Shown here one piece after another: positions 21,073 to 33,857 of a stretch of DNA of 64,000 nucleotides. The notes under the pieces are model-generated. The model ran no database searches and was not told the DNA's origin. It worked only from the letters and a program-made list of their open reading frames with translations. Position 1 is the first letter of the stretch; each line of letters opens with the position of its first letter. The DNA lies in NCBI RefSeq assembly GCF_003790525.1, contig NZ_CP033635.1, one strand, 5' to 3'. A program made the translations under genes and the position numbers. Source of the DNA: Escherichia coli. Its GTDB lineage: Bacteria; Pseudomonadota; Gammaproteobacteria; Enterobacterales; Enterobacteriaceae.

Positions 21073-21225
21073 ATGCTGACAAAATATGCCCTTGTGGCAA
21101 TCATAGTGCTGTGTTTTACAGTACTGGGATTCACGCTGATGGTAGGCGACTCGTTGTGTGAGTTGAGTATCAGAGAACGTGGTATGGAGTTTAAGGCGGT
21201 TCTCGCTTACGAATCGAAGAAGTAG
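21073..21225 (+). CDS. Hok/Gef-family type I toxin (50 aa)
   Basis: Below the ORF-track length cutoff; ATG at 21073 preceded by GGGAGG (21061-21066); [50 protein letters not shown] has the Hok family TM helix plus LCE...AYES signature. Confidence 0.7.
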
Positions 21226-21246
21226 CCACCACGCGGGGGTAAAACC

Positions 21247-22585
21247 CATAAGCGCTAACTTAAGGGTTGTGGTATTACGCCTGATATGATTTAACGTGCC
21301 GATGAATTACTCTCACGATAACTGGTCAGCAATTCTGGCCCATATTGGTAAGCCCGAAGAACTGGATACTTCGGCACGTAATGCCGGGGCTCTAACCCGC
21401 CGCCGCGAAATTCGTGATGCTGCAACTCTGCTACGTCTGGGGCTGGCTTACGGCCCCGGGGGGATGTCATTACGTGAAGTCACTGCATGGGCTCAGCTCC
21501 ATGACGTTGCAACATTATCTGACGTGGCTCTCCTGAAGCGGCTGCGGAATGCCGCCGACTGGTTTGGCATACTTGCCGCACAAACACTTGCTGTACGCGC
21601 CGCAGTTACGGGTTGTACAAGCGGAAAGAGATTGCGTCTTGTCGATGGAACAGCAATCAGTGCGCCCGGGGGCGGCAGCGCTGAATGGCGACTACATATG
21701 GGATATGATCCTCATACCTGTCAGTTCACTGATTTTGAGCTAACCGACAGCAGAGACGCTGAACGGCTGGACCGATTTGCGCAAACGGCAGACGAGATAC
21801 GCATTGCTGACCGGGGATTCGGTTCGCGTCCCGAATGTATCCGCTCACTTGCTTTTGGAGAAGCTGATTATATCGTCCGGGTTCACTGGCGAGGATTGCG
21901 CTGGTTAACTGCAGAAGGAATGCGCTTTGACATGATGGGTTTTCTGCGCGGGCTGGATTGCGGTAAGAACGGTGAAACCACTGTAATGATAGGCAATTCA
22001 GGTAATAAAAAAGCCGGAGCTCCCTTTCCGGCACGTCTCATTGCCGTATCACTTCCTCCCGAAAAAGCATTAATCAGTAAAACCCGACTGCTCAGCGAGA
22101 ATCGTCGAAAAGGACGAGTAGTTCAGGCGGAAACGCTGGAAGCAGCGGGCCATGTGCTATTGCTAACATCATTACCGGAAGATGAATATTCAGCAGAGCA
22201 AGTGGCTGATTGTTACCGTCTGCGATGGCAAATTGAACTGGCTTTTAAGCGGCTCAAAAGTTTGCTGCACCTGGATGCTTTGCGTGCAAAGGAACCTGAA
22301 CTCGCGAAAGCGTGGATATTTGCTAATCTACTCGCCGCATTTTTAATTGACGACATAATCCAGCCATCGCTGGATTTCCCCCCCAGAAGTGCCGGATCCG
22401 AAAAGAAGAACTAACTCGTTGTGGAGAATAACAAAAATGGTCATCTGGAGCTTACAGGTGGCCATTCGTGGGACAGTATCCCTGACAGCCTACAAAACGC
22501 AATTGAAGAACGCGAGGCATCGTCTTAACGAGGCACCGAGGCGTCGCATTCTTCAGATGGTTCAACCCTTAAGTTAGCGCTTATG
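21247..22585 (+). mobile_element. IS186 insertion sequence (about 1339 bp)
   Basis: 23-bp terminal inverted repeats CATAAGCGCTAACTTAAGGGTTG (21247-21269) and its reverse complement (22563-22585); encodes IS186-type transposase; flanked by a duplicated GGGTAAAACC-type target. Confidence 0.9.
21302..22414 (+). CDS. insL: IS186 transposase (IS4 family)
   Basis: 370 aa from ATG 21302 (MNYSHDNWSAILAHIGKPEEL...); the ORF track starts two codons earlier at a GTG. Confidence 0.9.
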   Translation: MNYSHDNWSAILAHIGKPEELDTSARNAGALTRRREIRDAATLLRLGLAYGPGGMSLREVTAWAQLHDVATLSDVALLKRLRNAADWFGILAAQTLAVRAAVTGCTSGKRLRLVDGTAISAPGGGSAEWRLHMGYDPHTCQFTDFELTDSRDAERLDRFAQTADEIRIADRGFGSRPECIRSLAFGEADYIVRVHWRGLRWLTAEGMRFDMMGFLRGLDCGKNGETTVMIGNSGNKKAGAPFPARLIAVSLPPEKALISKTRLLSENRRKGRVVQAETLEAAGHVLLLTSLPEDEYSAEQVADCYRLRWQIELAFKRLKSLLHLDALRAKEPELAKAWIFANLLAAFLIDDIIQPSLDFPPRSAGSEKKN

Positions 22586-22768
22586 GGGTAAAACCCCGCG
22601 TACTGAATTGTGATGGTTTGGTCTCCTGCACCCTTTTTTAATTTATATTGTTTATGTGAATATTATGCCTATGTTTATTATTCATATATATTACGGATGA
22701 AAATTATTTGATTATTCATAATGTAAATATTTTATTGAACGATATATATCACAGATAATTTTTAATAT

Positions 22769-25468
22769 ATGCGTAAATATCCTTTAAGTTTACTGAAGGA
22801 TAAAAATATTGTGACTTTTTTTGATTTCTGGGGAAAAACCCGACGCGGCGAGAAAGACGGGGGCGACGACTATCACCTTCTTTGCTGGCATTCGCTGGAT
22901 GTAGCCGCGATGGGCTATTTAATGGTTAAAAGCAATTGCTTCGGACTGGCTGACTATTTTCGTCAATTAGGTTTCGCTGACACGGAGCAGGCAGCACAAT
23001 TTTTCGCCTGGCTGCTGTGCTGGCACGATATTGGAAAATTTGCCCGCTCTTTTCAGCAACTTTACCTGCACCCACAACTCAAGGTCCCGGAAGGCGCAAG
23101 AAAGAATTACGAAAAGATCTCTCATTCAACGCTGGGCTACTGGTTGTGGAACCATTATTTAAGTGAATGTCAGGAGTTGCTTCCTTCATCTTCACTCTCT
23201 CCGCGCAAACTTAAACGGGTGATGGAGATGTGGATGCCCATGACTACCGGGCATCATGGTCGACCCCCTGAGCGTATGGATGAACTGGATAATTTTCTGC
23301 CTGAAGACAAAGGTGCCGCACGAGATTTTCTCCTTGCAATCAAGGTACTGTTTCCGCTCATAGAGATCCCCACATTCTGGGATGATGACGAGGGCGTTGA
23401 ACTTATAAAACAACTTTCCTGGTATATCTCTGCAACCGTCGTACTTGCAGACTGGACGGGATCGTCAACGCGATATTTTCCACGCGTCGCACAGACAATG
23501 GATATTGAAGATTACTGGCAGAAAACTTTAGTTCAGGCTCAAAACGCCTTAACCGTCTTTCCTCCAAAAGCAGAAAGCGCGCCTTTCACCGGAATTAATA
23601 CGCTGTTTCCTTTTATTGAGAATCCGACACCGCTACAGCAAAAGGTGCTGGATCTGGATATCAGCCAGCCGGGACCACAGTTATTTATTCTGGAGGATGT
23701 AACCGGCGCAGGTAAAACAGAAGCGGCGCTTATCCTGGCGCACAGGTTGATGGCTGCGGGGAAAGCGCAGGGTTTGTTTTTTGGCCTGCCAACAATGGCA
23801 ACGGCCAATGCCATGTACGATCGACTGGTCAAAACCTGGCTTGCTTTCTATTCGCCAGAGTCCCGCCCCAGCCTGGTGCTGGCACACAGTGCCCGAACAT
23901 TAATGGACCGCTTTAATGAATCACTCTGGTCCGGTGATTTAGTCGGGTCAGAAGAACCGGATGAACAAACGTTCAGTCAGGGATGTGCGGCCTGGTTTGC
24001 CGACAGTAACAAGAAGGCGCTACTGGCTGAAATTGGCGTCGGCACGCTGGATCAGGCGATGATGGCTGTGATGCCGTTCAAACATAATAATCTGCGGCTT
24101 CTGGGACTGAGTAACAAAATCCTGCTGGCTGATGAGATCCATGCCTGTGACGCTTACATGTCATGCATTCTTGAAGGGCTGATCGAGCGGCAGGCGCGTG
24201 GCGGAAACAGCGTCATTTTGCTTTCTGCCACGTTATCTCAACAGCAGCGCGACAAACTCGTTGCTGCCTTTGCGCGTGGTATAGAGGGCCAGCAAGAAGC
24301 TCCGTTCCTGGAAAAGGATGATTACCCCTGGCTGACGCACGTTACGAAATCCGATGTGCATTCACACCGGGTAGCGACGCGCAAAGACGTTGAGCGCAGC
24401 GTGAGTGTGGGTTGGCTTCATAGCGAACAAGAGTGTATTGCGCGTATCGCATCGGCGGTAAGTCAGGGGAAATGTATCGCCTGGATCCGAAATTCTGTCG
24501 ATGACGCCATCCAGGTTCATCGTCAGTTACTTGCCCGCGGCGTCATTCCTGCTTCCAGCCTTTCACTTTTTCATAGCCGCTTTGCTTTTAGCGATCGCCA
24601 GCGAATTGAAACGGAGACGCTGGCACGCTTTGGTAAAGAAGACTGTTCACAGCGTGCCGGAAAAGTCCTCATTTGTACTCAAGTCCTGGAGCAGAGCGTT
24701 GACTGCGACCTGGACGAAATGATTTCCGACCTTGCCCCTGTTGATTTACTGATCCAGCGAGCAGGGCGATTACAGCGACATATCCGCGATATGAATGGCC
24801 AGTTAAAGCGTGACGGTAAAGACGAGCGTCACCCTCCTGAATTGCTGATTCTGGCCCCCGTCTGGGACGACTCTCCGGGTGACGAATGGTTTGGCAGTGC
24901 CATGCGTAACAGTGCATTTGTCTATCCCGATCATGGGCGAATCTGGCTGACGCAGCGTGTGCTGCGTGAGCAAGGTGCTATTCAGATGCCACACTCAGCC
25001 CGGCTTCTGATTGAATCAGTCTACGGTGAGGACGTAGTAATGCCGGAAGGGTTTGCCCGCAGCGAGCAGGAGCAAGTGGGCAAATATTACTGCGATCGCG
25101 CAATGGCTAAAAAGTTTGTACTGAACTTCAGGCCCGGCTATGCCGCCAATATCAACGATTACCTCCCGGAAAAACTGTCGACACGTCTGGCTGAAGAGTC
25201 TGTTTCCCTGTGGCTGGCTACCTGTATTGACGGTGTGGTGAAGCCTTATGCCACAGGTGCACACGCATGGGAAATGAGCGTTGTCAGAGTGCGCCGAAGC
25301 TGGTGGAAAAAACATCGGGATGAGTTTTCTTTACTGGAAGGGGATGCGTTCAGGCAGTGGTGCGTTGAACAGCGGCATGATCCGGAGATGGCAAACGTGA
25401 TTTTAGTCACCGATGACGAAAGTTGTGGGTATTCGGCTACGGAGGGATTGATTGGCAAGGTTGGTTGA
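22769..25468 (+). CDS. cas3: Cas3 helicase-nuclease (type I-E)
   Basis: 899 aa; N-terminal HD region and superfamily-2 helicase motifs (GAGKTEAA, DEIH); first gene of the cas cluster. Confidence 0.9.
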   Translation: MRKYPLSLLKDKNIVTFFDFWGKTRRGEKDGGDDYHLLCWHSLDVAAMGYLMVKSNCFGLADYFRQLGFADTEQAAQFFAWLLCWHDIGKFARSFQQLYLHPQLKVPEGARKNYEKISHSTLGYWLWNHYLSECQELLPSSSLSPRKLKRVMEMWMPMTTGHHGRPPERMDELDNFLPEDKGAARDFLLAIKVLFPLIEIPTFWDDDEGVELIKQLSWYISATVVLADWTGSSTRYFPRVAQTMDIEDYWQKTLVQAQNALTVFPPKAESAPFTGINTLFPFIENPTPLQQKVLDLDISQPGPQLFILEDVTGAGKTEAALILAHRLMAAGKAQGLFFGLPTMATANAMYDRLVKTWLAFYSPESRPSLVLAHSARTLMDRFNESLWSGDLVGSEEPDEQTFSQGCAAWFADSNKKALLAEIGVGTLDQAMMAVMPFKHNNLRLLGLSNKILLADEIHACDAYMSCILEGLIERQARGGNSVILLSATLSQQQRDKLVAAFARGIEGQQEAPFLEKDDYPWLTHVTKSDVHSHRVATRKDVERSVSVGWLHSEQECIARIASAVSQGKCIAWIRNSVDDAIQVHRQLLARGVIPASSLSLFHSRFAFSDRQRIETETLARFGKEDCSQRAGKVLICTQVLEQSVDCDLDEMISDLAPVDLLIQRAGRLQRHIRDMNGQLKRDGKDERHPPELLILAPVWDDSPGDEWFGSAMRNSAFVYPDHGRIWLTQRVLREQGAIQMPHSARLLIESVYGEDVVMPEGFARSEQEQVGKYYCDRAMAKKFVLNFRPGYAANINDYLPEKLSTRLAEESVSLWLATCIDGVVKPYATGAHAWEMSVVRVRRSWWKKHRDEFSLLEGDAFRQWCVEQRHDPEMANVILVTDDESCGYSATEGLIGKVG

Positions 25469-25565: not shown

Positions 25566-27128
25566 ATGAACTCGTTTTCACTTCTGACAACCCCGTGGTT
25601 GCCTGTTCGTTTCAAAGACGGAACGACAGGCAAGCTGGCACCAGTCGATCTGGCTGATGAAAATGTTGTCGATATCGCCGCACCGCGAGCAGATTTACAA
25701 GGTGCGGCCTGGCAGTTTTTGCTGGGACTACTACAAACCAGCTTCGCGCCAAAAGATCATCGTCGTTGGGATGATATCTGGGAAGACGGACTGGAAGCTG
25801 AAAAGCTACGAGAAGCATTGCTGTCTTTAGAACATGCTTTCCAGTTTGGGCCTGATTCATCTTCATTTATGCAGGATTTTGAGGCGCTCACGGGAGATAA
25901 AGTTCCGGTCGCTTCGCTACTGCCTGAGATTCCCGGCTCTCAAACGACGAAGTTTAATAAAGACCATTTTATCAAGCGGGGTGTAACGGAATATCTGTGC
26001 CCCCATTGCTTAGCATTGGCCTTGTTCTCTTTACAGTTGAATGCACCCGCGGGCGGCAAAGGCTATCGCACCGGTTTACGAGGCGGTGGGCCGATGACGA
26101 CTCTCATTGAATTACAGGAATATCAGGGCAATCAACAAACACCCTTGTGGCGCAAACTGTGGCTCAACGTGATGCCGCAGGATGAAGCCGACTTACCGCT
26201 ACCCAAAAAATTTGACGATCTGATTTTCCCCTGGCTAGGCCCGACGCGTACCAGCGAACTGGTCGGTGCGGTGGTAACCCATGATCAGGTCAATAAACTC
26301 CAGGCGTACTGGGGAATGCCGCGGCGTATACGTATTGATTTTAATACCACGACAGTCGGCAACTGCGATATTTGCGACGAGCAGAACGACGCGCTCCTGA
26401 GCCTGATGACGACCAAAAATTATGGTGCCAATTATGCCATGTGGCAGCATCCCTTAACGCCTTACCGTGTACCACTTAAAGAGGGTGGCGAGTTTTACTC
26501 CGTTAAACCACAACCGGGCGGTTTAATCTGGCGCGACTGGTTAGGCCTTATCGAAACGGGTAAATCAGAAAACAATACGGAACTTCCCGCGTTGGTGGTG
26601 AAACTCTTTAATGCCAGCAGTCTGAAACAGGCAAAAGTGGGCCTATGGGGATTTGGTTATGATTTTGACAACATGAAAGCGCGCTGTTGGTACGAACACC
26701 ATTTCCCGCTACTGCTCAATAAAAAAGAAGGCCAGATACCGAAGCTGCGGCTGGCTGCGCAAACGGCTTCACGGATTCTGAGTCTGTTACGGAGTGCATT
26801 GAAAGAAGCATGGTTCTCCGATCCAAAAGGTGCAAGGGGTGATTTCAGTTTTGTGGATATCGACTTCTGGAACAAAACTCAGCATCGCTTCCTGAGGTTA
26901 GTGCGCCAAATTGAAGAAGGTCAGGATGCGGATGAATTACTCGGCAAATGGCAAAAGGAAATGTGGTTATTCGCGCGTCAGGATTTTGACGAGCGTGTAT
27001 TCACTAATCCTTATGAGCCCGTTGATTTGAAACGCGTCATGACCGCGCGCAAGAAATATTTTACAACATCGGCGGAGAAGCAAAGTGCTAAAGCCGCCAG
27101 GGAGAAAAAGCAGGAGGCTGCTGAATGA
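25566..27128 (+). CDS. casA: Cascade large subunit Cse1 (CasA)
   Basis: Start taken at ATG 25566 (MNSFSLLTTPWLPVR) with GAGAGG upstream; the ORF track begins at a TTG at 25497; position right after cas3. Confidence 0.8.
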   Translation: MNSFSLLTTPWLPVRFKDGTTGKLAPVDLADENVVDIAAPRADLQGAAWQFLLGLLQTSFAPKDHRRWDDIWEDGLEAEKLREALLSLEHAFQFGPDSSSFMQDFEALTGDKVPVASLLPEIPGSQTTKFNKDHFIKRGVTEYLCPHCLALALFSLQLNAPAGGKGYRTGLRGGGPMTTLIELQEYQGNQQTPLWRKLWLNVMPQDEADLPLPKKFDDLIFPWLGPTRTSELVGAVVTHDQVNKLQAYWGMPRRIRIDFNTTTVGNCDICDEQNDALLSLMTTKNYGANYAMWQHPLTPYRVPLKEGGEFYSVKPQPGGLIWRDWLGLIETGKSENNTELPALVVKLFNASSLKQAKVGLWGFGYDFDNMKARCWYEHHFPLLLNKKEGQIPKLRLAAQTASRILSLLRSALKEAWFSDPKGARGDFSFVDIDFWNKTQHRFLRLVRQIEEGQDADELLGKWQKEMWLFARQDFDERVFTNPYEPVDLKRVMTARKKYFTTSAEKQSAKAAREKKQEAAE

Positions 27129-27661
27129 GTATTGTAAAAGAGGAGCACAAAGCCACGCTGCGTAAATGGCACGAAGAGTTGCAGGAAAAACGCGGCAATC
27201 GTGCCAGTCTGCGGCGTAGCACAACGGTTAATGATGTTTGTCTGTCAGAAGGTTTTCGTTCTCTGCTGATGCAGACCCACACGTTGTGGAAAATTGAATC
27301 ACAGGAGTGGCGTTTTACCGCACTGGCGCTGGTTGCCGCCGTTGCCGCCAATGTAAAAGCCATTGATGAACGGCAGCCTTTTGCCGCGCAGTTGGCGGCG
27401 GTAATGTCTGAGGGGCGTTTTACTCGCCTGTCGGCAATCAAAACGCCGGATGATTTACTGCGCCAGTTACGTCGCGCGGTCAAATTATTAAACGGTTCCG
27501 TCAATCTTATCTCTTTGGCAGACGATATTTTCCGCTGGTGCCAGGAGAGTGACGACCTGCTCAACCATCACCGCCGTCAGCAGCGGCCAACAGAATTTAT
27601 CCGTATCCGCTGGGCGCTGGAATATTACCAGGCTGGCGACGCCGATAACGAACAAAATTAA
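27125..27661 (+). CDS. casB: Cascade small subunit Cse2 (CasB)
   Basis: 178 aa; ATG overlaps the cse1 stop (ATGA); position in the operon. Confidence 0.8.
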   Translation: MSIVKEEHKATLRKWHEELQEKRGNRASLRRSTTVNDVCLSEGFRSLLMQTHTLWKIESQEWRFTALALVAAVAANVKAIDERQPFAAQLAAVMSEGRFTRLSAIKTPDDLLRQLRRAVKLLNGSVNLISLADDIFRWCQESDDLLNHHRRQQRPTEFIRIRWALEYYQAGDADNEQN

Positions 27662-27675
27662 TAAAGGACTATCTC

Positions 27676-28731
27676 ATGACGACATTTATTCAGCTTCATT
27701 TGTTAACCGCTTACCCTGCAGCCAACCTTAACCGTGATGACACCGGTGCGCCGAAAACCGTGGTGCTGGGTGGAGCAACGCGTCTGCGCGTTTCCTCGCA
27801 AAGTCTGAAACGTGCGTGGCGCACTTCTGCACTTTTTGAACAGGCGCTGGCGGGCCATATTGGTATTCGTAGTGGGCGTATCGCGCGCGAGGCAGCAACT
27901 ATCATGATAGAGAAAGGAATCGAAGAAAAAAAAGCCATCGAATGGGCGGCAGATATTGCCGATTATCTTGGTAAAGCCAAAAAAGACAAAAAACCAAAAG
28001 ATCCGCTCACTAACGCTGAAACTGAACAGCTCGTCCATATCAGCCCGGCAGAATTTGACGCCGTAAAAGCGCTGGCCCATCAACTGGCAGAAGAAAAGCG
28101 CGCGCCAAAAGAGGACGATCTCGCTTTGTTACGTAAAGATCGTATGGCGGTAGATATCGCCATGTTTGGTCGTATGCTGGCGAATAAACCCGAGTTTAAT
28201 GTTGAAGCCGCCTGTCAGGTCGCGCACGCGTTTGGTGTCAGTGAAACGATTGTCGAAGATGATTTTTTCACCGCCGTTGATGATTTGCGCCAGGCCTCTG
28301 AAGATGCTGGTGCAGGGCATCTTGGTGAAACTGGATTTGGTTCTGCGCTGTTCTACACCTATATCTGCATTGATAAAGATCTGCTGGTCGAAAACCTCGG
28401 CGGTGACGAAGCATTAGCTAATCAGACCCTGCGCGCCTTTACGGAAGCAGCGTTTAAAGTTTCCCCAACCGGTAAACAAAACAGCTTTGCCAGCCGTGCC
28501 TACGCCTCCTGGGCGCTGGCAGAAAAAGGCACCGAACAACCGCGTTCTCTGGCGGCGGCTTTCTATGAACCCATTAATGGCACACGTCAGTTAGATGTGG
28601 CGGTGCAGCGTATTACAACGCTTCGCGAAAACATGAATACGGTTTACGAACAGAAGACCGAATGCGCAAGTTTTGACGTGATGAACAAACAGGGAAGCAT
28701 GAAGGACGTGCTGGACTTTATCTGCGCGTAA
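27676..28731 (+). CDS. casC: Cascade backbone subunit Cas7e (CasC)
   Basis: 351 aa; position and size in the I-E operon. Confidence 0.85.
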   Translation: MTTFIQLHLLTAYPAANLNRDDTGAPKTVVLGGATRLRVSSQSLKRAWRTSALFEQALAGHIGIRSGRIAREAATIMIEKGIEEKKAIEWAADIADYLGKAKKDKKPKDPLTNAETEQLVHISPAEFDAVKALAHQLAEEKRAPKEDDLALLRKDRMAVDIAMFGRMLANKPEFNVEAACQVAHAFGVSETIVEDDFFTAVDDLRQASEDAGAGHLGETGFGSALFYTYICIDKDLLVENLGGDEALANQTLRAFTEAAFKVSPTGKQNSFASRAYASWALAEKGTEQPRSLAAAFYEPINGTRQLDVAVQRITTLRENMNTVYEQKTECASFDVMNKQGSMKDVLDFICA

Positions 28732-28741
28732 GGGGCGGCTT

Positions 28742-29488
28742 ATGAGCCAATATCTGATTTTTCAGCTTCATGGGCCAATGGCATCCTGGGGCGTTGATGC
28801 ACCCGGTGAGGTGCGTCATAGCCATGAACTGCCTTCGCGTTCAGCATTGCTGGGGCTGCTGGCTGCCGGGGTAGGGATACGGCGTGATGACACCGAATGC
28901 TTAAACGCGTTTAATCGCCACTATTCACTGGTGGTTTGCGCCAGCCGTAACCCGCGCTGGGCACGGGATTATCACACGGTCCAGATGCCAAAAGAGGTGC
29001 GTAAAGCGCGTTATTTCAGCCGTCGCGAAGAGTTGAGCGACCCTGATCTTCTAAGCGCGATTATCTCCCGGCGCGACTACTACACCGATGCCTGGTGGAT
29101 GGTGGCCGTGGCAACAACAGCTGATGCGCCTTACAGCCTCGAACAGTTGCAGGAAGGTTTACGCCATCCGGTTTTTCCGCTTTATCTGGGGCGAAAAAGC
29201 CATCCGCTGGCATTACCCCTTGCGCCGTTACTGCTCGAAGGCAACGCGTCTGATGCCTTACGTAACGCATACCAACAGTATCAGGATCGTTTCCACGAAC
29301 TAAAAGTCTCACTCCCGAAACTTCAGGATGAATGCTGGTGGGAAGGGGAGCACGATGGCCTGGTCTCGAGCAAAATATTACGCCGCCGGGATGTTCCTTT
29401 AAATCGTCAGCAGTGGCTGTTTGGGGAACGCACCGTCAATCAGGGGCCGTGGCTCAGCAAGGAGGAACCATGTACCTCTCAAGAATAA
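28742..29488 (+). CDS. casD: Cascade subunit Cas5e (CasD)
   Basis: 248 aa; position in the operon. Confidence 0.85.
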   Translation: MSQYLIFQLHGPMASWGVDAPGEVRHSHELPSRSALLGLLAAGVGIRRDDTECLNAFNRHYSLVVCASRNPRWARDYHTVQMPKEVRKARYFSRREELSDPDLLSAIISRRDYYTDAWWMVAVATTADAPYSLEQLQEGLRHPVFPLYLGRKSHPLALPLAPLLLEGNASDALRNAYQQYQDRFHELKVSLPKLQDECWWEGEHDGLVSSKILRRRDVPLNRQQWLFGERTVNQGPWLSKEEPCTSQE

Positions 29489-30116
29489 CCTTACATACCG
29501 GCCAGCTTTCGCCTGCGCAGTTGCTGCATCTGGTGGATCGCGGGGAATATGTGATGCATCAGTGGCTGTGGGATCTTTTTCCTGGCGGCAAAGAAAGGCA
29601 ATTTCTTTATCGTCGGGAAGAACTCCAGGGCGCGTTTCGCTTTTTTGTCCTGTCGCAGGAACGCCCGGCGGAAAGTGAAACGTTCACCATCGAATGCCGG
29701 TCATTTGCGCCTGAACTGCATACCGGACAATCCCTTTGTTTCAACCTGCGGGCGAATCCAACAGTCTGTAAAGCGGGTAAGCGCCACGATCTGCTGATGG
29801 AGGCGAAACGGCAGGTGAGGGGGCAGGCGGAAGGAAGAAATGTCTGGTTGCATCAACAACAGGCGGCGCTGGACTGGCTGGCAGCGCAGGGGGAGAGAAG
29901 CGGTTTTACACTGCTGGATACCTCGGTCGATGCCTACCGACAACAGCAACTGCGGCGGGAAAACTCCCGGCAACTGATCCAGTTCAGTAGCGTGGATTAT
30001 ACAGGGATGCTTACAGTCACCGATCCAGGGTTATTTCTGCAACGTCTCTGCCTGGGGTATGGCAAAAGCCGGGCGTTCGGCTGTGGTCTGATGTTAATCA
30101 AACCCGGAGCAGAGGC

Positions 30117-30120
<4 letters not shown>
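29470..30120 (+). CDS. casE: crRNA endoribonuclease Cas6e (CasE)
   Basis: Start taken at MYLSRITLHTG with GGAGGA at 29461-29466; overlaps the casD 3' end by 19 bp. Confidence 0.85.
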
Positions 30121-31330
<1,210 letters not shown>

Positions 31331-31426
31331 GTTACCCGTTCTTTAAAAATAAGGAAAAGTTTGAATTTAGTTGGTAGATTGTTGTTGTGGAATAAAATTG
31401 TTTAAAAACAGATACGTATGCTTAGT
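31331..31426 (+). promoter_or_regulatory. CRISPR leader (AT-rich) between cas2 and the first repeat
   Basis: 96-bp AT-rich segment immediately 5' of repeat 1, on the same side as cas1-cas2. Confidence 0.6.
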
Positions 31427-32797
31427 GTGTTCCCTGCGCCAGCGGGGATAAACCGGTGACCATAAGGGCATTTCATACTGCCTTGCTGTGTTCCCTGCGC
31501 CAGCGGGGATAAACCGGTGAACGTGACAACGCCCGCGACAGAAACGTCGTGTTCCCTGCGCCAGCGGGGATAAACCGGGAAGAAGCGGTAAAGCGGGTTC
31601 CAGTTCAGCGTGTTCCCTGCGCCAGCGGGGATAAACCGAAATTAATTTCGAAACGGGCGTTGATGGTGAAGTGTTCCCTGCGCCAGCGGGGATAAACCGG
31701 CTGGCGCACCTTACGCAAAAATAGACGTAAAGTGTTCCCTGCGCCAGCGGGGATAAACCGCCAGGGAGCGAAGCTGTGGCCATGCTGAAAGGGTGTTCCC
31801 TGCGCCAGCGGGGATAAACCGGGGTTCTATTTCCTCGGGATTTGCCGACACGCGTGTTCCCTGCGCCAGCGGGGATAAACCGGTCAACGCTGGTCAGGCG
31901 TGGTACTTCCTCCGGTGTTCCCTGCGCCAGCGGGGATAAACCGGCTGCCGCGCTTTCGGTGTGGGAGCAGTATGAGTGTTCCCTGCGCCAGCGGGGATAA
32001 ACCGAAACTCCGTGGTGTAGTGCGTTTGTTGGTGCGGTGTTCCCTGCGCCAGCGGGGATAAACCGTTGGTATTAACGGGAATGTAGTCACTCCAGGAGTG
32101 TTCCCTGCGCCAGCGGGGATAAACCGGCGATCGTATTTTCCGCTACGTCGCTCAAATGGTGTTCCCTGCGCCAGCGGGGATAAACCGTCGTTGATGGTGT
32201 GATGAGTGTACAAAAAAAAGTGTTCCCTGCGCCAGCGGGGATAAACCGACGACTGAATCCGGCGAGGCTATCAACTGGCCGTGTTCCCTGCGCCAGCGGG
32301 GATAAACCGCCGCACACGTCGAGCTGGTGGGGATTAATGCTGTGTTCCCTGCGCCAGCGGGGATAAACCGCAGTAAACGTTCGCGCGTTCTCGCGCTCAC
32401 GAGTGTTCCCTGCGCCAGCGGGGATAAACCCTCTGTGTATTCGCTACCAGCCAGCACCGGTACGTGTTCCCTGCGCCAGCGGGGATAAACCGCAGGGTAA
32501 CTGGCTGCTCCTCAACCATTCCGCGTGTTCCCCGCGCCAGCGGGGATAAACCGGGGTTTTAGCGACCGGACCAGAGTACGCAACAGTGTTCCCCGCGCCA
32601 GCGGGGATAAACCGTTGCGCCTTAAGTTCCTTAACTTCCTCTGTATGTGTTCCCCGCGCCAGCGGGGATAAACCGGGAGTGATGAATTGGAAGTAACGGA
32701 TAACCGCGTGTTCCCTGCGCCAGCGGGGATAAACCGGACGCACTGGATGCGATGATGGATATCACTTAGAGTTCCCCCCGCCCCTGCGGTAGAACTC
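31427..32797 (+). CRISPR. type I-E CRISPR array: 23 repeats of 29 bp (last one degenerate), 22 spacers of 32 bp, period 61 bp
   Basis: Repeat GTGTTCCCTGCGCCAGCGGGGATAAACCG starting at 31427, 31488, 31549 ... 32708 (every 61 bp); degenerate terminal repeat GAGTTCCCCCCGCCCCTGCGGTAGAACTC at 32769-32797. Confidence 0.95.
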
Positions 32798-32819
32798 CCA
32801 GCTCCCATTTTCAAACCCA

Positions 32820-33857
32820 TCAAGACGCCTTCGCCAGCTCTTTCACCAGAGGTAGCATTATCCGCATAACGTCACGGCAGCGACGTTCTATTCTTCCAGG
32901 AAGTGCCTTATCAATATGTTGTTGATTATCCAGTCTTACGTCATGCCAGCTATTTCCCGCAGGGAATGCAGCTGTTTTTGCGCGTTGCTGATAACCATCC
33001 TTATTTCCAAGATTCCAGTTGGTCGCCTCCACCGAAAGTACCGCAATACCGGCTTTGTCGAAAACTTCGGCGTCATTACAACAGCCAGTACCCTTCGGAT
33101 AATTTTTATTCAAACCCGGATTGGTCGTTGCGGCAATTCCATGACTACGCGCAATTGCCAGCGCCCTGTCGCGCGTTAATTTCCTTACTGCTTCAGGGGT
33201 TTTTACACCGCTGTTGAAATACAATTTATCGCCAACAATTAAGTTATCGAGATTAATCACCAGCAGTGTATTTTTCTTTTCGGAGTCACTCATCCGCTTG
33301 AGTAAATTCTCAGCGCCTAATTTCCCTTCCTCTTCGCCGCTGGTCGCCACAAATCGAATACCATACTCGGTAGGCGTATTTTTCAGGCGTTCTGCCAATT
33401 CCAGCATGACACCTAAACCTGCGGCGTTATCATCCATTCCTTGTAACGTCAGCCCGCCGAGATTGGCATCGGCGTCAGCATCGCTCAGCGGGGCGTAAGT
33501 ATCCAGATGCGCCATAATGATGATCTGCTGCGGCGCTTTGCCTTCATGAGCGGCAATCACCGTACTTCCCGTCACGTTATGCCAGCTCTTGCGATTATCG
33601 CGGGCGGTATAAATATACCGACTATTAAATGTCCGAATATCACTGCGATAACCCATTTGCTGAAACTGTTGGCGAATATAATCGGCAGATAACATTTCTG
33701 CTGGAGTTCCGGTCATGCGTCCCGGAAAGAAAGTAGCAATATGTCGTGCCTGGGTATTAGCAAAATCGCCAGGTTTAGGTGACGAGGCGTGTACGGGGAG
33801 AATAAAGCATACGCCGAGCGCCAGGGCAGCGGTACGGTGGCGCAATGCGGAAAACAT
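32820..33857 (-). CDS. iap: alkaline phosphatase isozyme conversion aminopeptidase
   Basis: 345 aa with signal peptide; M28-peptidase-like; convergent with the CRISPR array. Confidence 0.85.
   Translation of the reverse strand: MFSALRHRTAALALGVCFILPVHASSPKPGDFANTQARHIATFFPGRMTGTPAEMLSADYIRQQFQQMGYRSDIRTFNSRYIYTARDNRKSWHNVTGSTVIAAHEGKAPQQIIIMAHLDTYAPLSDADADANLGGLTLQGMDDNAAGLGVMLELAERLKNTPTEYGIRFVATSGEEEGKLGAENLLKRMSDSEKKNTLLVINLDNLIVGDKLYFNSGVKTPEAVRKLTRDRALAIARSHGIAATTNPGLNKNYPKGTGCCNDAEVFDKAGIAVLSVEATNWNLGNKDGYQQRAKTAAFPAGNSWHDVRLDNQQHIDKALPGRIERRCRDVMRIMLPLVKELAKAS

Follow-up and report, generated by a model that had tools for sequence, protein, structure and literature searches.

In the type I-E CRISPR-Cas systems of E. 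coli, the array is transcribed from its leader, Cas6e releases 61-nt crRNAs by cutting at the repeat hairpins, Cascade carrying a 32-nt spacer finds DNA bearing a 5'-AWG PAM, and Cas3 then degrades that DNA. The K-12 system (CRISPR-I with Cascade-Cas3, called cas-EK) shares its gene order, repeat hairpin, 61-nt unit, and mechanism with the locus described here. The O157:H7-type variant (cas-EO, with leader-A and type-A repeats) has the same location, namely, cysH-hok-cas3...cas2-leader-array-iap (Diez-Villasenor et al. 2013, PMC3737337), and also goes by the name cas-E1 (Almendros et al. 2014, PMC3903273). The protospacer motif of type-A/cas-EO arrays is CWT, equivalent to AWG, with CAT predominating (PMC3737337). 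Where spacers of E. coli I-E arrays have protospacers on chromosomes, these lie in prophages; a single array can direct 1 to 8 spacers at one element, and the arrays change slowly (Touchon and Rocha 2010, PMC2886076). Prophages of the Ph1-E24377A/Ph1-SE11 class are targeted by different strains (PMC2886076).

We analyzed a stretch of E. coli DNA of 64,000 nt, referred to below as the window, that carries a type I-E array at positions 31427 to 32797 (+ strand), annotated as CRISPR in RefSeq. It comprises 23 repeats and 22 spacers and keeps an exact 61-nt period over its whole length, 29-nt repeats alternating with unique spacers that are all exactly 32 nt long, from S01, which starts at 31456, to S22 (32737 to 32768). 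The preliminary description had counted 22 spacers and quoted three of them as examples. We recovered all 22, and the quoted sequences were right, as were the starts given as 31456 and 32737, but the spacer placed at 31762 (S06) begins at 31761. Twenty-two repeats are well preserved and take the form GTGTTCCC(T/C)GCGCCAGCGGGGATAAACCG, whereas the 23rd, at 32769, is a degenerate terminal repeat; the 22 repeat matches in the real window compare with none in shuffled windows. The change C9 to T is found in repeats 1 to 18 and 22 and preserves the hairpin via a G.U pair, and repeat 17, which precedes S17, is the only one to end in C and not G. Both repeat variants are predicted to form a 7-bp stem with a GCCA-type loop (-13.0 and -15.2 kcal/mol), a fold that would provide the stem-loop for recognition by Cas6e. 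The leader lies at the S01 side, and the degenerate repeat and S22, a species-wide spacer, lie at the opposite end. The array sequence is 100% identical in SMS-3-5 and in 11 further complete genomes (12 in total). It is the chromosomal cas2-iap type I-E array of E. coli (CRISPR-I/CRISPR2.1) in its non-K-12, GTGTTC-repeat variant, and it is a real, ordinary array of an already known kind.

The eight-gene I-E cas operon is complete. On the + strand it consists of cas3 (22769 to 25468; cas3_core and cas3_HD models, intact according to RefSeq), casA/cse1 (25566 to 27128; TIGR02547, 605 bits), casB/cse2 (27125 to 27661; TIGR02548), cas7e/casC (27676 to 28731; TIGR01869), cas5e/casD (28742 to 29488; TIGR01868), cas6e/casE (29470 to 30120; TIGR01907), cas1e (30117 to 31040; TIGR03638), and cas2e (31037 to 31330; TIGR01873), all of them also annotated in RefSeq. 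All eight proteins scored above the NCBIfam I-E cut-offs, and RefSeq flags no pseudogene in the identical sequence. Two K-12-derived NCBIfam models, PRK09694 (Cas3) and PRK09693 (CasA), stayed far below their cut-offs, whereas the general I-E models passed. An AT-rich leader of 96 nt (31331 to 31426, + strand) separates cas2 from the first repeat and contains a candidate promoter, TTGGTA-16-TAAAAT at 31371 to 31398, which a consensus scan identified as a match to the consensus only. On the trailer side, the boundary gene is iap (32820 to 33857, - strand; RefSeq). Between cysH and cas3 lies hok, a Hok/Gef family toxin gene (21073 to 21225, + strand), at which the window is 100% identical to the annotated SMS-3-5 sequence. 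A copy of IS186 (IS4-like; 21248 to 22584, + strand), delimited by comparison of the window with SMS-3-5, which lacks it, encodes an IS421-family transposase (ORF at 21296 to 22414) and sits 184 nt upstream of the cas3 start codon. It is flanked by a 12-nt target duplication, GGGGTAAAACCC (21236 to 21247, repeated at 22585 to 22596), and strain CM2 (NZ_CP158308.1) shows the same junction at 100% identity.

Protospacer homologues were found for 11 of the 22 spacers, whose coordinates are all given on the + strand. Eight of these spacers (S04, S05, S07, S08, S09, S11, S12, and S14) match one mosaic temperate prophage family of E. coli, represented by prophages of RM10042, JNE151685, and SK1144 and by vB_EcoM-569R10, and all eight match it on the same strand. 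S04 (31639 to 31670; 28/32, PAM AAG) falls in the gene for tail protein I in myovirus-type prophages, among them vB_EcoM-569R10 and many E. coli prophages, and S05 (31700 to 31731; 29/32, PAM ATA in the sampled relatives) falls in this gene as well, 9 nt further downstream. In these prophages, S07 (31822 to 31853; 25/32, PAM GTG) matches a 1,641-nt tail gene in the tape-measure position, with five of its seven mismatches at third codon positions, and S11 (32066 to 32097; 29/32, PAM ATC or ATT in relatives) matches the tail sheath gene of the family. These four late-gene spacers hit diverged relatives only (3 to 8 mismatches), and their exact donor phage is absent from the databases.

Two spacers of the family match perfectly. 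The S08 protospacer (31883 to 31914; 32/32, PAM ATG) lies in an unannotated, conserved non-coding region on the left side of the prophage gene for a cI-like repressor, where Rfam and ARAGORN searches returned nothing above threshold. That of S09 (31944 to 31975; 32/32, PAM ATG) lies in a 225-nt ORF following a ydaT-like gene (strains RM10042, E62, and JNE151685). The prophages of these three strains match S08 perfectly as well, and those of SK1144-type strains match S08 perfectly. A site at least 99% identical to S08 or S09 was present in about 450 of 5,426 E. coli genomes and, among the matches listed, nearly all were to S08. Stenotrophomonas phage BUCT708 (29/32 for S08) and Pectobacterium phage ZF40 (28/32 for S09) were rejected as donors, as the E. 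coli prophages give 32/32 with an ATG PAM; both phages simply share homologous segments. S12 (32127 to 32158; 30/32, PAM GCG) matches a tail-region gene in a siphovirus-type member of the family, the JNE151685 prophage, at a site that is also overlapped by an I-F spacer of strain MS1170 and by a Salmonella I-E spacer. S14 (32249 to 32280; 29/32, PAM ATG) falls in the gene for the HK97-type major capsid protein of that prophage, with mismatches only at positions 6, 12, and 24. Cascade leaves spacer positions 6, 12, and 24 unpaired; S14 would pair effectively perfectly with the JNE151685 prophage.

Two further spacers, S10 and S15, match the lysis cassette of related phages. S10 (32005 to 32036) corresponds to a TIGR02594-family lysin gene in P1-like Citrobacter phage-plasmids (28/32, PAM ATG), with a second match (24/32, PAM ATG) in the prophage that bears the S15 site. 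S15 (32310 to 32341) is identical over 32/32 positions to the start of a holin-like gene of an uncultured prophage, whose start codon is itself the ATG PAM; the site is carried by IMG/VR UViG_2529293142_000021, GCA_014326635.1, and others, and we found no cultured phage close to this prophage. We also considered whether S15 is directed against I-F cas genes, like the "anti-CRISPR" spacers of orphan I-F arrays, and rejected this idea, since the I-F operon of MS1170 contained no match with up to 9 mismatches and S15 in truth matches where the phage holin gene begins. In E. coli 536, the first spacer of the orphan I-F array covers the S15 site too, shifted by 2 nt. As a separate observation, spacer 2 of that orphan array matches cas3f. 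The eleventh matched spacer, S20 (32615 to 32646; 28/32, PAM ATG), hits a kfrA-like DNA-binding gene of the IncP-like conjugative plasmid pMB3565_2 (CP134900.1), at two sites that lie within an internal repeat of the gene.

The other 11 spacers, the three newest among them, had no protospacer match. S01, the newest (31456 to 31487), had no match among phages or plasmids or, outside arrays, in 5,426 E. coli genomes, and IMG/VR, the GTDB representative genomes, and the JGI metagenomes were likewise negative. No match was found in phages, plasmids, E. coli genomes, and IMG/VR for S02 (31517 to 31548), S03 (31578 to 31609), S06 (31761 to 31792), S16 (32371 to 32402), S17 (32432 to 32463), and S18 (32493 to 32524), or in phages, plasmids, and E. 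coli genomes for S13 (32188 to 32219), S19 (32554 to 32585), and S21 (32676 to 32707). For S01, S02, S03, S06, S16, S17, and S18, IMG/VR was scanned for exact matches with any base allowed at every sixth position; scans of the same kind returned nothing for S01 and S15 in GTDB representative genomes and nothing for S01 in JGI metagenomes. S22, the trailer-end "anchor" spacer (32737 to 32768), occurs inside CRISPR arrays only and is present in most E. coli genomes: queries containing S22 matched 4,775 genomes, versus 473, 215, and 25 for queries without it. It is also found in a cas-CRISPR-iap segment on the IncHI2 plasmid pIOMTU792. The matches of S22 and S12 in plasmid databases were rejected as protospacers, as all of them are CRISPR arrays, located on chromosomes misfiled as plasmids, in the pIOMTU792 segment, or in a Salmonella Senftenberg array.

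The preliminary description had called for a search with inspection of AAG and ATG PAMs, which proved informative, with 11 of the 22 spacers traced to temperate phages, prophages, or a plasmid. At the best match, the PAM is ATG for S08, S09, S10, S14, S15, and S20 and AAG for S04 (6:1), so that 7 of the 11 matched spacers, including all three perfect ones (S08, S09, and S15), have an AWG PAM. The PAMs of S05, S07, S11, and S12 are non-canonical in the sampled relatives, which are diverged. The ATG-dominated set fits the known non-K-12 I-E variant. The GTGTTC start of the repeats and the 6:1 ratio of ATG to AAG are what would be expected of cas-EO, and the repeat type, the PAM bias, and the subthreshold scores of the K-12-specific models PRK09693 and PRK09694 together suggest a cas-EO/type-A assignment.

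Taken as a whole, the locus is very probably an ordinary non-K-12 I-E array that recorded past phage and plasmid encounters and has no self-target. As such a record, it holds at least 10 spacers from temperate phages, 8 of them derived from one mosaic prophage family common in E. coli, and one spacer (S20) from an IncP-like plasmid; S08, S09, and S15 are still perfect against extant prophages with an ATG PAM. The run from S04 to S14 most likely came from repeated, primed acquisition from related phages, because all family matches are on the same strand. The array has gained no spacer since its carriers diverged and would probably be transcriptionally silenced most of the time under H-NS. In the arrays of five relatives, we found deletion variants only and no new spacers. 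As deletions account for all the differences among the relatives' arrays, the array is a record of long standing that changes slowly.

The primed origin of the S04-to-S14 run is the part of this account that meets the most serious competitor. All eight family matches lie on one strand of the prophage map (two-sided binomial P = 0.008, with S04 and S05 adjacent and, hence, fewer than eight independent events), a consensus PAM accompanies four of the eight, and the donors are at least two mosaic relatives. The spacers might instead have been acquired independently, by naive adaptation in separate infections or inductions, with the shared strand reflecting another bias or chance. Two late-gene modules, one of myovirus type and one of HK97/siphovirus type, do point to at least two phages. 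Array-specific coding-strand biases have been described without invoking priming (Touchon and Rocha 2010, PMC2886076), and ATG-dominated PAMs are also typical of natural type-A arrays generally (PMC3737337). However, the single strand shared by all eight matches includes S08, whose neighbouring genes run in the opposite direction, and the bias therefore tracks the DNA strand and not coding sense. S04 and S05 are, moreover, adjacent in the array and 9 nt apart in the phage. Finally, I-E systems are known to enter primed adaptation when a spacer partially matches a related phage. We regard independent acquisition as possible but doubtful and retain primed acquisition as the preferred origin of the run.

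Could the array be a currently active immune system that keeps the prophage family out of the lineage? Four spacers (S08, S09, S14, and S15) show effectively perfect pairing with extant prophages beside an ATG PAM, the cas genes are intact, and the S08/S09 site, found in about 8% of E. coli genomes, occurs in none of 24 array carriers. Against this, 0/24 compared with a background of 8.3% gives P of about 0.12, and the carriers are close relatives, so that the difference is not significant. No spacer has been gained in any relative, and E. coli I-E systems are silenced by H-NS in laboratory conditions. Slow turnover (Touchon and Rocha 2010, PMC2886076) likewise speaks against ongoing immunity, which we consider unlikely. 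Less likely again is a compound scenario in which the array testifies to effective natural I-E immunity in E. coli: the lineage would have primed itself step by step against a single widespread family of temperate phages and would keep that family out to this day, and the protospacers that S12 and S15 share across I-E, I-F, and Salmonella I-E arrays, over 30 to 31 nt, would mark acquisition hot spots in these phages or cross-system coupling and not dense sampling. Taken alone, the spacers do not speak directly to whether the locus is active today.

The preliminary description had left open whether any spacer targets the chromosome or a mobile element. The second part of the question is answered positively, since 11 of the 22 spacers match temperate phages, prophages, or one plasmid; as to the first, no chromosomal self-target was found. 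A self-targeting array, with spacers matching the host chromosome, a resident prophage, or a plasmid and the locus inactive or regulating a resident element, is not without precedent, as cases are known in E24377A, UTI89, APEC O1, and S88 (Touchon and Rocha 2010, PMC2886076), and the IS186 just upstream of cas3 could in principle lower cas3 expression. Nevertheless, this reading is very improbable here. The spacers had been reported as unmatched in the window, IS186 included, and this holds on both strands of the 64 kb with up to 9 mismatches. The 24 complete genomes that bear the array (12 with the identical array and 12 with deletion variants) each matched at the array itself only, in a search with a sensitivity of about 4 mismatches or fewer whose BLAST place counts refer to public genomes sharing the array and not to the source genome. 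E. coli plasmid records gave no protospacer match (E ≤ 10, roughly at least 28/32). Every cas gene is intact, and SMS-3-5 carries the same array without the IS186. The consequences for viability or locus activity implied earlier find no support either, as the prophage matches are all in other E. coli strains. Judged from these searches, self-targeting appears largely refuted; as no spacer seems to match the host chromosome or plasmids, the array would pose no autoimmunity problem.

That the partial matches (3 to 8 mismatches) are due to chance and only the three perfect ones are meaningful is hardly credible: although the 28/32 matches have BLAST E values of 0.9 to 3 in large databases, the partial matches share prophages and strand with the perfect matches, their mismatches lie mostly at third codon positions, ATG or AAG stands directly upstream in four of them versus 1/32 expected by chance, and shuffled spacers gave no site of at least 24/32 in the same 569 kb of sequence, compared with 22 real sites.

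The array is thus without autoimmune liability, and its spacer content gives no argument that the locus must be dead. Half of its spacers are now covered by a target map. On paper, three or four of them would be interference competent against prophages that about 8% of the sequenced E. coli genomes carry, and this opens the way to testing natural I-E activity directly.

Compared with known systems, the locus is nothing new in kind, prophage-directed, slowly evolving E. coli I-E arrays having been described in 2010. It resembles the arrays that converge on the Ph1-E24377A and Ph1-SE11 prophages (PMC2886076) in having several spacers per prophage, in having all its chromosomal protospacers in prophages, and in being slow to change or static. 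The same phage families are also targets of the I-F arrays that E. coli carries at the clpA-infA locus, the short orphan array of B2 strains among them. Of the 52 I-F spacers in MS1170, at least 14 match the phage loci examined here; one I-F spacer overlaps S12 by 31 nt, and another overlaps S15 by 30 nt. The I-F arrays differ in their repeat (GTTCACTGCCGTACAGGCAGCTTAGAAA), their CC PAM, their Cas proteins, and their chromosomal locus, which is outside this window. From K-12 cas-EK, with its GAGTTC repeats, other leader, and almost exclusive AAG (CTT) acquisition motif (PMC3737337), the locus also differs in Cas protein lengths and sequences and in its spacers, except at the trailer end. The closest likeness is to cas-EO, with which it shares 29-nt GTGTTC...ATAAACCG repeats, 32-nt spacers, and an AWG motif with ATG predominant; IS186 and hok/sok in the cysH-cas3 intergenic region are among the arrangements described there (PMC3737337). 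Nothing essential appears to set the two apart, most repeats here simply carrying the C9-to-T change with its G.U pair in the stem.

The CRISPR array, labelled as such in RefSeq between cas2e and iap, occupied positions 31427-32797 and was fully regular, with 22 repeats of 29 nt, a degenerate repeat 23 at 32769, and 22 distinct spacers of exactly 32 nt each, numbered from S01 (leader side, newest) to S22 (trailer end). The repeat, GTGTTCCC[T/C]GCGCCAGCGGGGATAAACCG, occurred 22 times in the window versus 0 in shuffled sequences and was absent from the rest of the 64 kb. The C9-to-T change found in 19 repeats is predicted to keep the Cas6e hairpin via a G.U pair, and the 96-nt leader contained one promoter-like site, called from its match to the consensus only. 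In I-E systems, the final base of a repeat is a copy of the PAM-proximal base of the protospacer. Since repeat 17 (32403-32431) was the sole repeat with a terminal C in place of G, S17 was probably taken beside a motif not ending in G; S17 had no database match. The coordinates and spacer sequences in the preliminary description were correct, except that S06 starts at 31761 instead of 31762. As it had also stated, no spacer matched elsewhere in the window, IS186 (21248-22584) included; even with up to 9 mismatches allowed, neither strand held a second site.

In order to evaluate self-targeting, a question raised in the same description, we joined the spacers by N-linkers and searched the chromosomes and plasmids of 5,426 complete E. 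coli genomes, accepting E values of ≤10; in this database, that limit corresponds to a match of about ≥28/32. In 24/24 complete genomes that have the array, whole or as a deletion variant, it was the sole place matched by the spacers, and no E. coli plasmid record of the set was matched. Thus, no self-target was found at a sensitivity of about ≥28/32. S22 matched arrays only: 4,775 genomes were matched with S22 in the query, mostly by S22, versus 473, 215, and 25 without it.

The spacers were then run against phage (50,697 records) and plasmid (72,556 records) databases, and the fetched loci were scanned locally. Together with the E. coli genomes, these searches gave phage or prophage and plasmid matches for 11 spacers, 7 of which were directly preceded by ATG or AAG. 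Eight of them pointed to one mosaic family of temperate E. coli prophages. S08 (32/32, ATG) matched unannotated DNA to the left of the gene for the cI-like repressor, and S09 (32/32, ATG) matched a 225-nt ORF in the same prophages (RM10042, E62, and JNE151685). In about 450 E. coli genomes, a site matched S08 or S09 at ≥99% identity; among the non-array matches listed, 34/36 were full-length S08 sites. The myovirus-type late module of the family held the sites of S04 (28/32, AAG) and S05 (29/32), both in the gene for tail protein I and separated by 9 nt, of S07 (25/32) in a 1,641-nt tail gene, and of S11 (29/32) in the sheath gene. The siphovirus-type late module, attached in JNE151685 to the same early region as in the rest of the family, held those of S12 (30/32) and S14 (29/32, ATG), the latter in an HK97-type capsid gene.

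Comparison of the JNE151685 prophage (locus L017) with the SK1144 prophage (L010) and loci L011 and L013 showed one conserved early region (cI-like, ydaT-like, helicase, Q, holins, and TIGR02594 lysin) combined with either of two late modules, a lambda-like head with a P2-like contractile tail or an HK97-type siphovirus module. Integration sites differed within the family, beside tRNA-Ser/mtfA or beside yecA.

Several observations indicate that the partial matches are real. In the same 569 kb, shuffled spacers gave 0 sites of ≥24/32 versus 22 for the real spacers. Mismatches fell mostly at third codon positions (5/7 for S07), and several matches were found in loci fetched on account of another spacer.

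S04, S05, S07, S08, S09, S11, S12, and S14 form a near-contiguous block in the array, and in the prophage map 8/8 fall on a single DNA strand (two-sided binomial P of ∼0.008), including S08, although its neighboring genes are on the opposite strand. Primed adaptation set off by partial matches is established for I-E systems. We infer that the same-strand block and its at least two mosaic donor relatives fit primed adaptation from partial matches; that each spacer was instead acquired naively and independently is a serious rival explanation. The mismatches of S14 are at positions 6, 12, and 24, which are unpaired in Cascade, so this spacer joins S08, S09, and S15 as interference competent, on paper, against extant prophages. 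The S08/S09 site was present in 0/24 carriers of the array versus ∼8% of other genomes; with a P of ∼0.12 and carriers that are close relatives, we therefore draw no conclusion on exclusion. The arrays of M172-1, KFu014, E22, CUVET17-1418, and 2D were only deletion derivatives of the 22-spacer set, with no new spacers, in agreement with the slow CRISPR turnover reported in E. coli (PMC2886076).

E. coli prophages and Stenotrophomonas phage BUCT708 shared 72% identity in the ∼0.9-kb unannotated region around the S08 protospacer (L010:5285-6172 in the SK1144 prophage; L004:1218-2030 in BUCT708). This region was clearly noncoding: indels were a multiple of 3 in only 3/20 cases, and mismatches were even across the three codon phases. 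It folded better than shuffled sequences on both strands (z of about -3.2 and -3.3) and contained the repeated motifs GTCTTTCC/GGAAAGAC. Rfam 15 gave no family at threshold, with weak minus-strand RprA-like matches only (37 to 50 bits; gathering score, 70). A ∼170-nt module of the region (L010:5887-6058) recurred in unannotated gaps of Uetakevirus (SPN1S, Tyrion, and PAT1), Lastavirus SopranoGao, and P1-like D6 (fetched loci L032:1201-1372, L033:1201-1372, L034:1201-1350, L035:774-916, and L036:1201-1285). It adjoined a tRNA gene in 2 of the 5 loci checked (SPN1S and D6) and showed covarying hairpins with compensatory changes in 6 to 8 pairs. The region may represent one undescribed phage noncoding RNA or several in a cluster.

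Outside this family, S15 (32/32) matched an uncultured prophage present in IMG/VR and several NCBI assemblies, where the ATG of its PAM starts a holin-like gene. S10 matched a TIGR02594-family lysin gene in P1-like Citrobacter phage-plasmids (28/32, ATG) and, at 24/32 with ATG, the S15-matched prophage 515 nt downstream of the S15 site. S20 (28/32, ATG) matched a kfrA-like gene carried by an IncP-like conjugative plasmid. S01 to S03, S06, S13, S16 to S19, and S21 were unmatched outside arrays; exact IMG/VR scans for seven of these gave nothing, as did exact scans of representative genomes and metagenomes for S01. A chromosomal-type cas5e-cas6e-cas1e-cas2e-array-iap segment, with nine different spacers and an S22 variant, was found on the 293-kb conjugative IncHI2 plasmid record pIOMTU792 (NZ_LC542972.1, 243937-249967) and represents either a mobilized I-E locus or an assembly artifact.

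I-F arrays of other E. coli strains aim at the same phages, at least 14/52 spacers of MS1170 matching fetched loci. E. coli 536 has an orphan I-F array (clpA-infA) of two spacers, and spacer 1 (L014:6001-6032) overlaps S15 by 30 nt with a 2-nt shift; the target reads ATG-CC-GCAC..., the I-E PAM ATG abutting the I-F PAM CC. S12 is overlapped by an MS1170 I-F spacer (L016:1283-1314; 31 nt, 1-nt shift, opposite strand) and a Salmonella Senftenberg I-E spacer (L008:2998-3029; 1-nt shift, 28/30 identity). Such shared protospacers may reflect either dense sampling of the same phages or acquisition hot spots. Spacer 2 of strain 536 (L014:6061-6092) matches cas3f (31/32, CC PAM; MS1170, L016:6474-6505), reproducing the concept of "anti-CRISPR" spacers put forward by Touchon and Rocha (2010; PMC2886076), in which such arrays match cas genes only; the phage-derived spacer 1, at a holin start, does not fit.

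Twelve complete genomes, E. coli SMS-3-5 (NC_010498.1) among them, matched the array and its flanks (31300-32900) at 100% identity. Over 10287-43636, SMS-3-5 was 100% identical to the window apart from one 1,337-nt IS186 (21248-22584), which it lacks. This element lies at a GGGGTAAAACCCC site just 3' of the hok gene, 184 nt upstream of the cas3 start codon, between 12-nt target duplications (GGGGTAAAACCC; 21236-21247 and 22585-22596). Strain CM2 had a 100% identical IS186 junction and an identical array, and at least 1,728 genomes had a place, not necessarily at the cas locus, covering ≥80% of the 301-nt hok-IS186 junction query. IS186 and hok/sok between cysH and cas3 are arrangements already described for the locus (PMC3903273).

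All 8 I-E cas genes were present at full length, each above its NCBIfam I-E model cutoff, and the K-12-specific Cas3 and CasA models scored below theirs. The repeat starts with GTGTTC, i.e., it is of type A, which Diez-Villasenor et al. tied to a non-K-12 cas variant with a CWT (= AWG) motif (PMC3737337). All features here agree with this known variant of the I-E system in E. coli. The finding is real, ordinary, and already known in kind, its novelty being confined to the target map of this one array. According to Touchon and Rocha (2010), the protospacers that E. coli I-E arrays have on chromosomes sit in prophages, one element can be matched by 1 to 8 spacers of a single array, and one prophage class is targeted convergently by many strains (PMC2886076).
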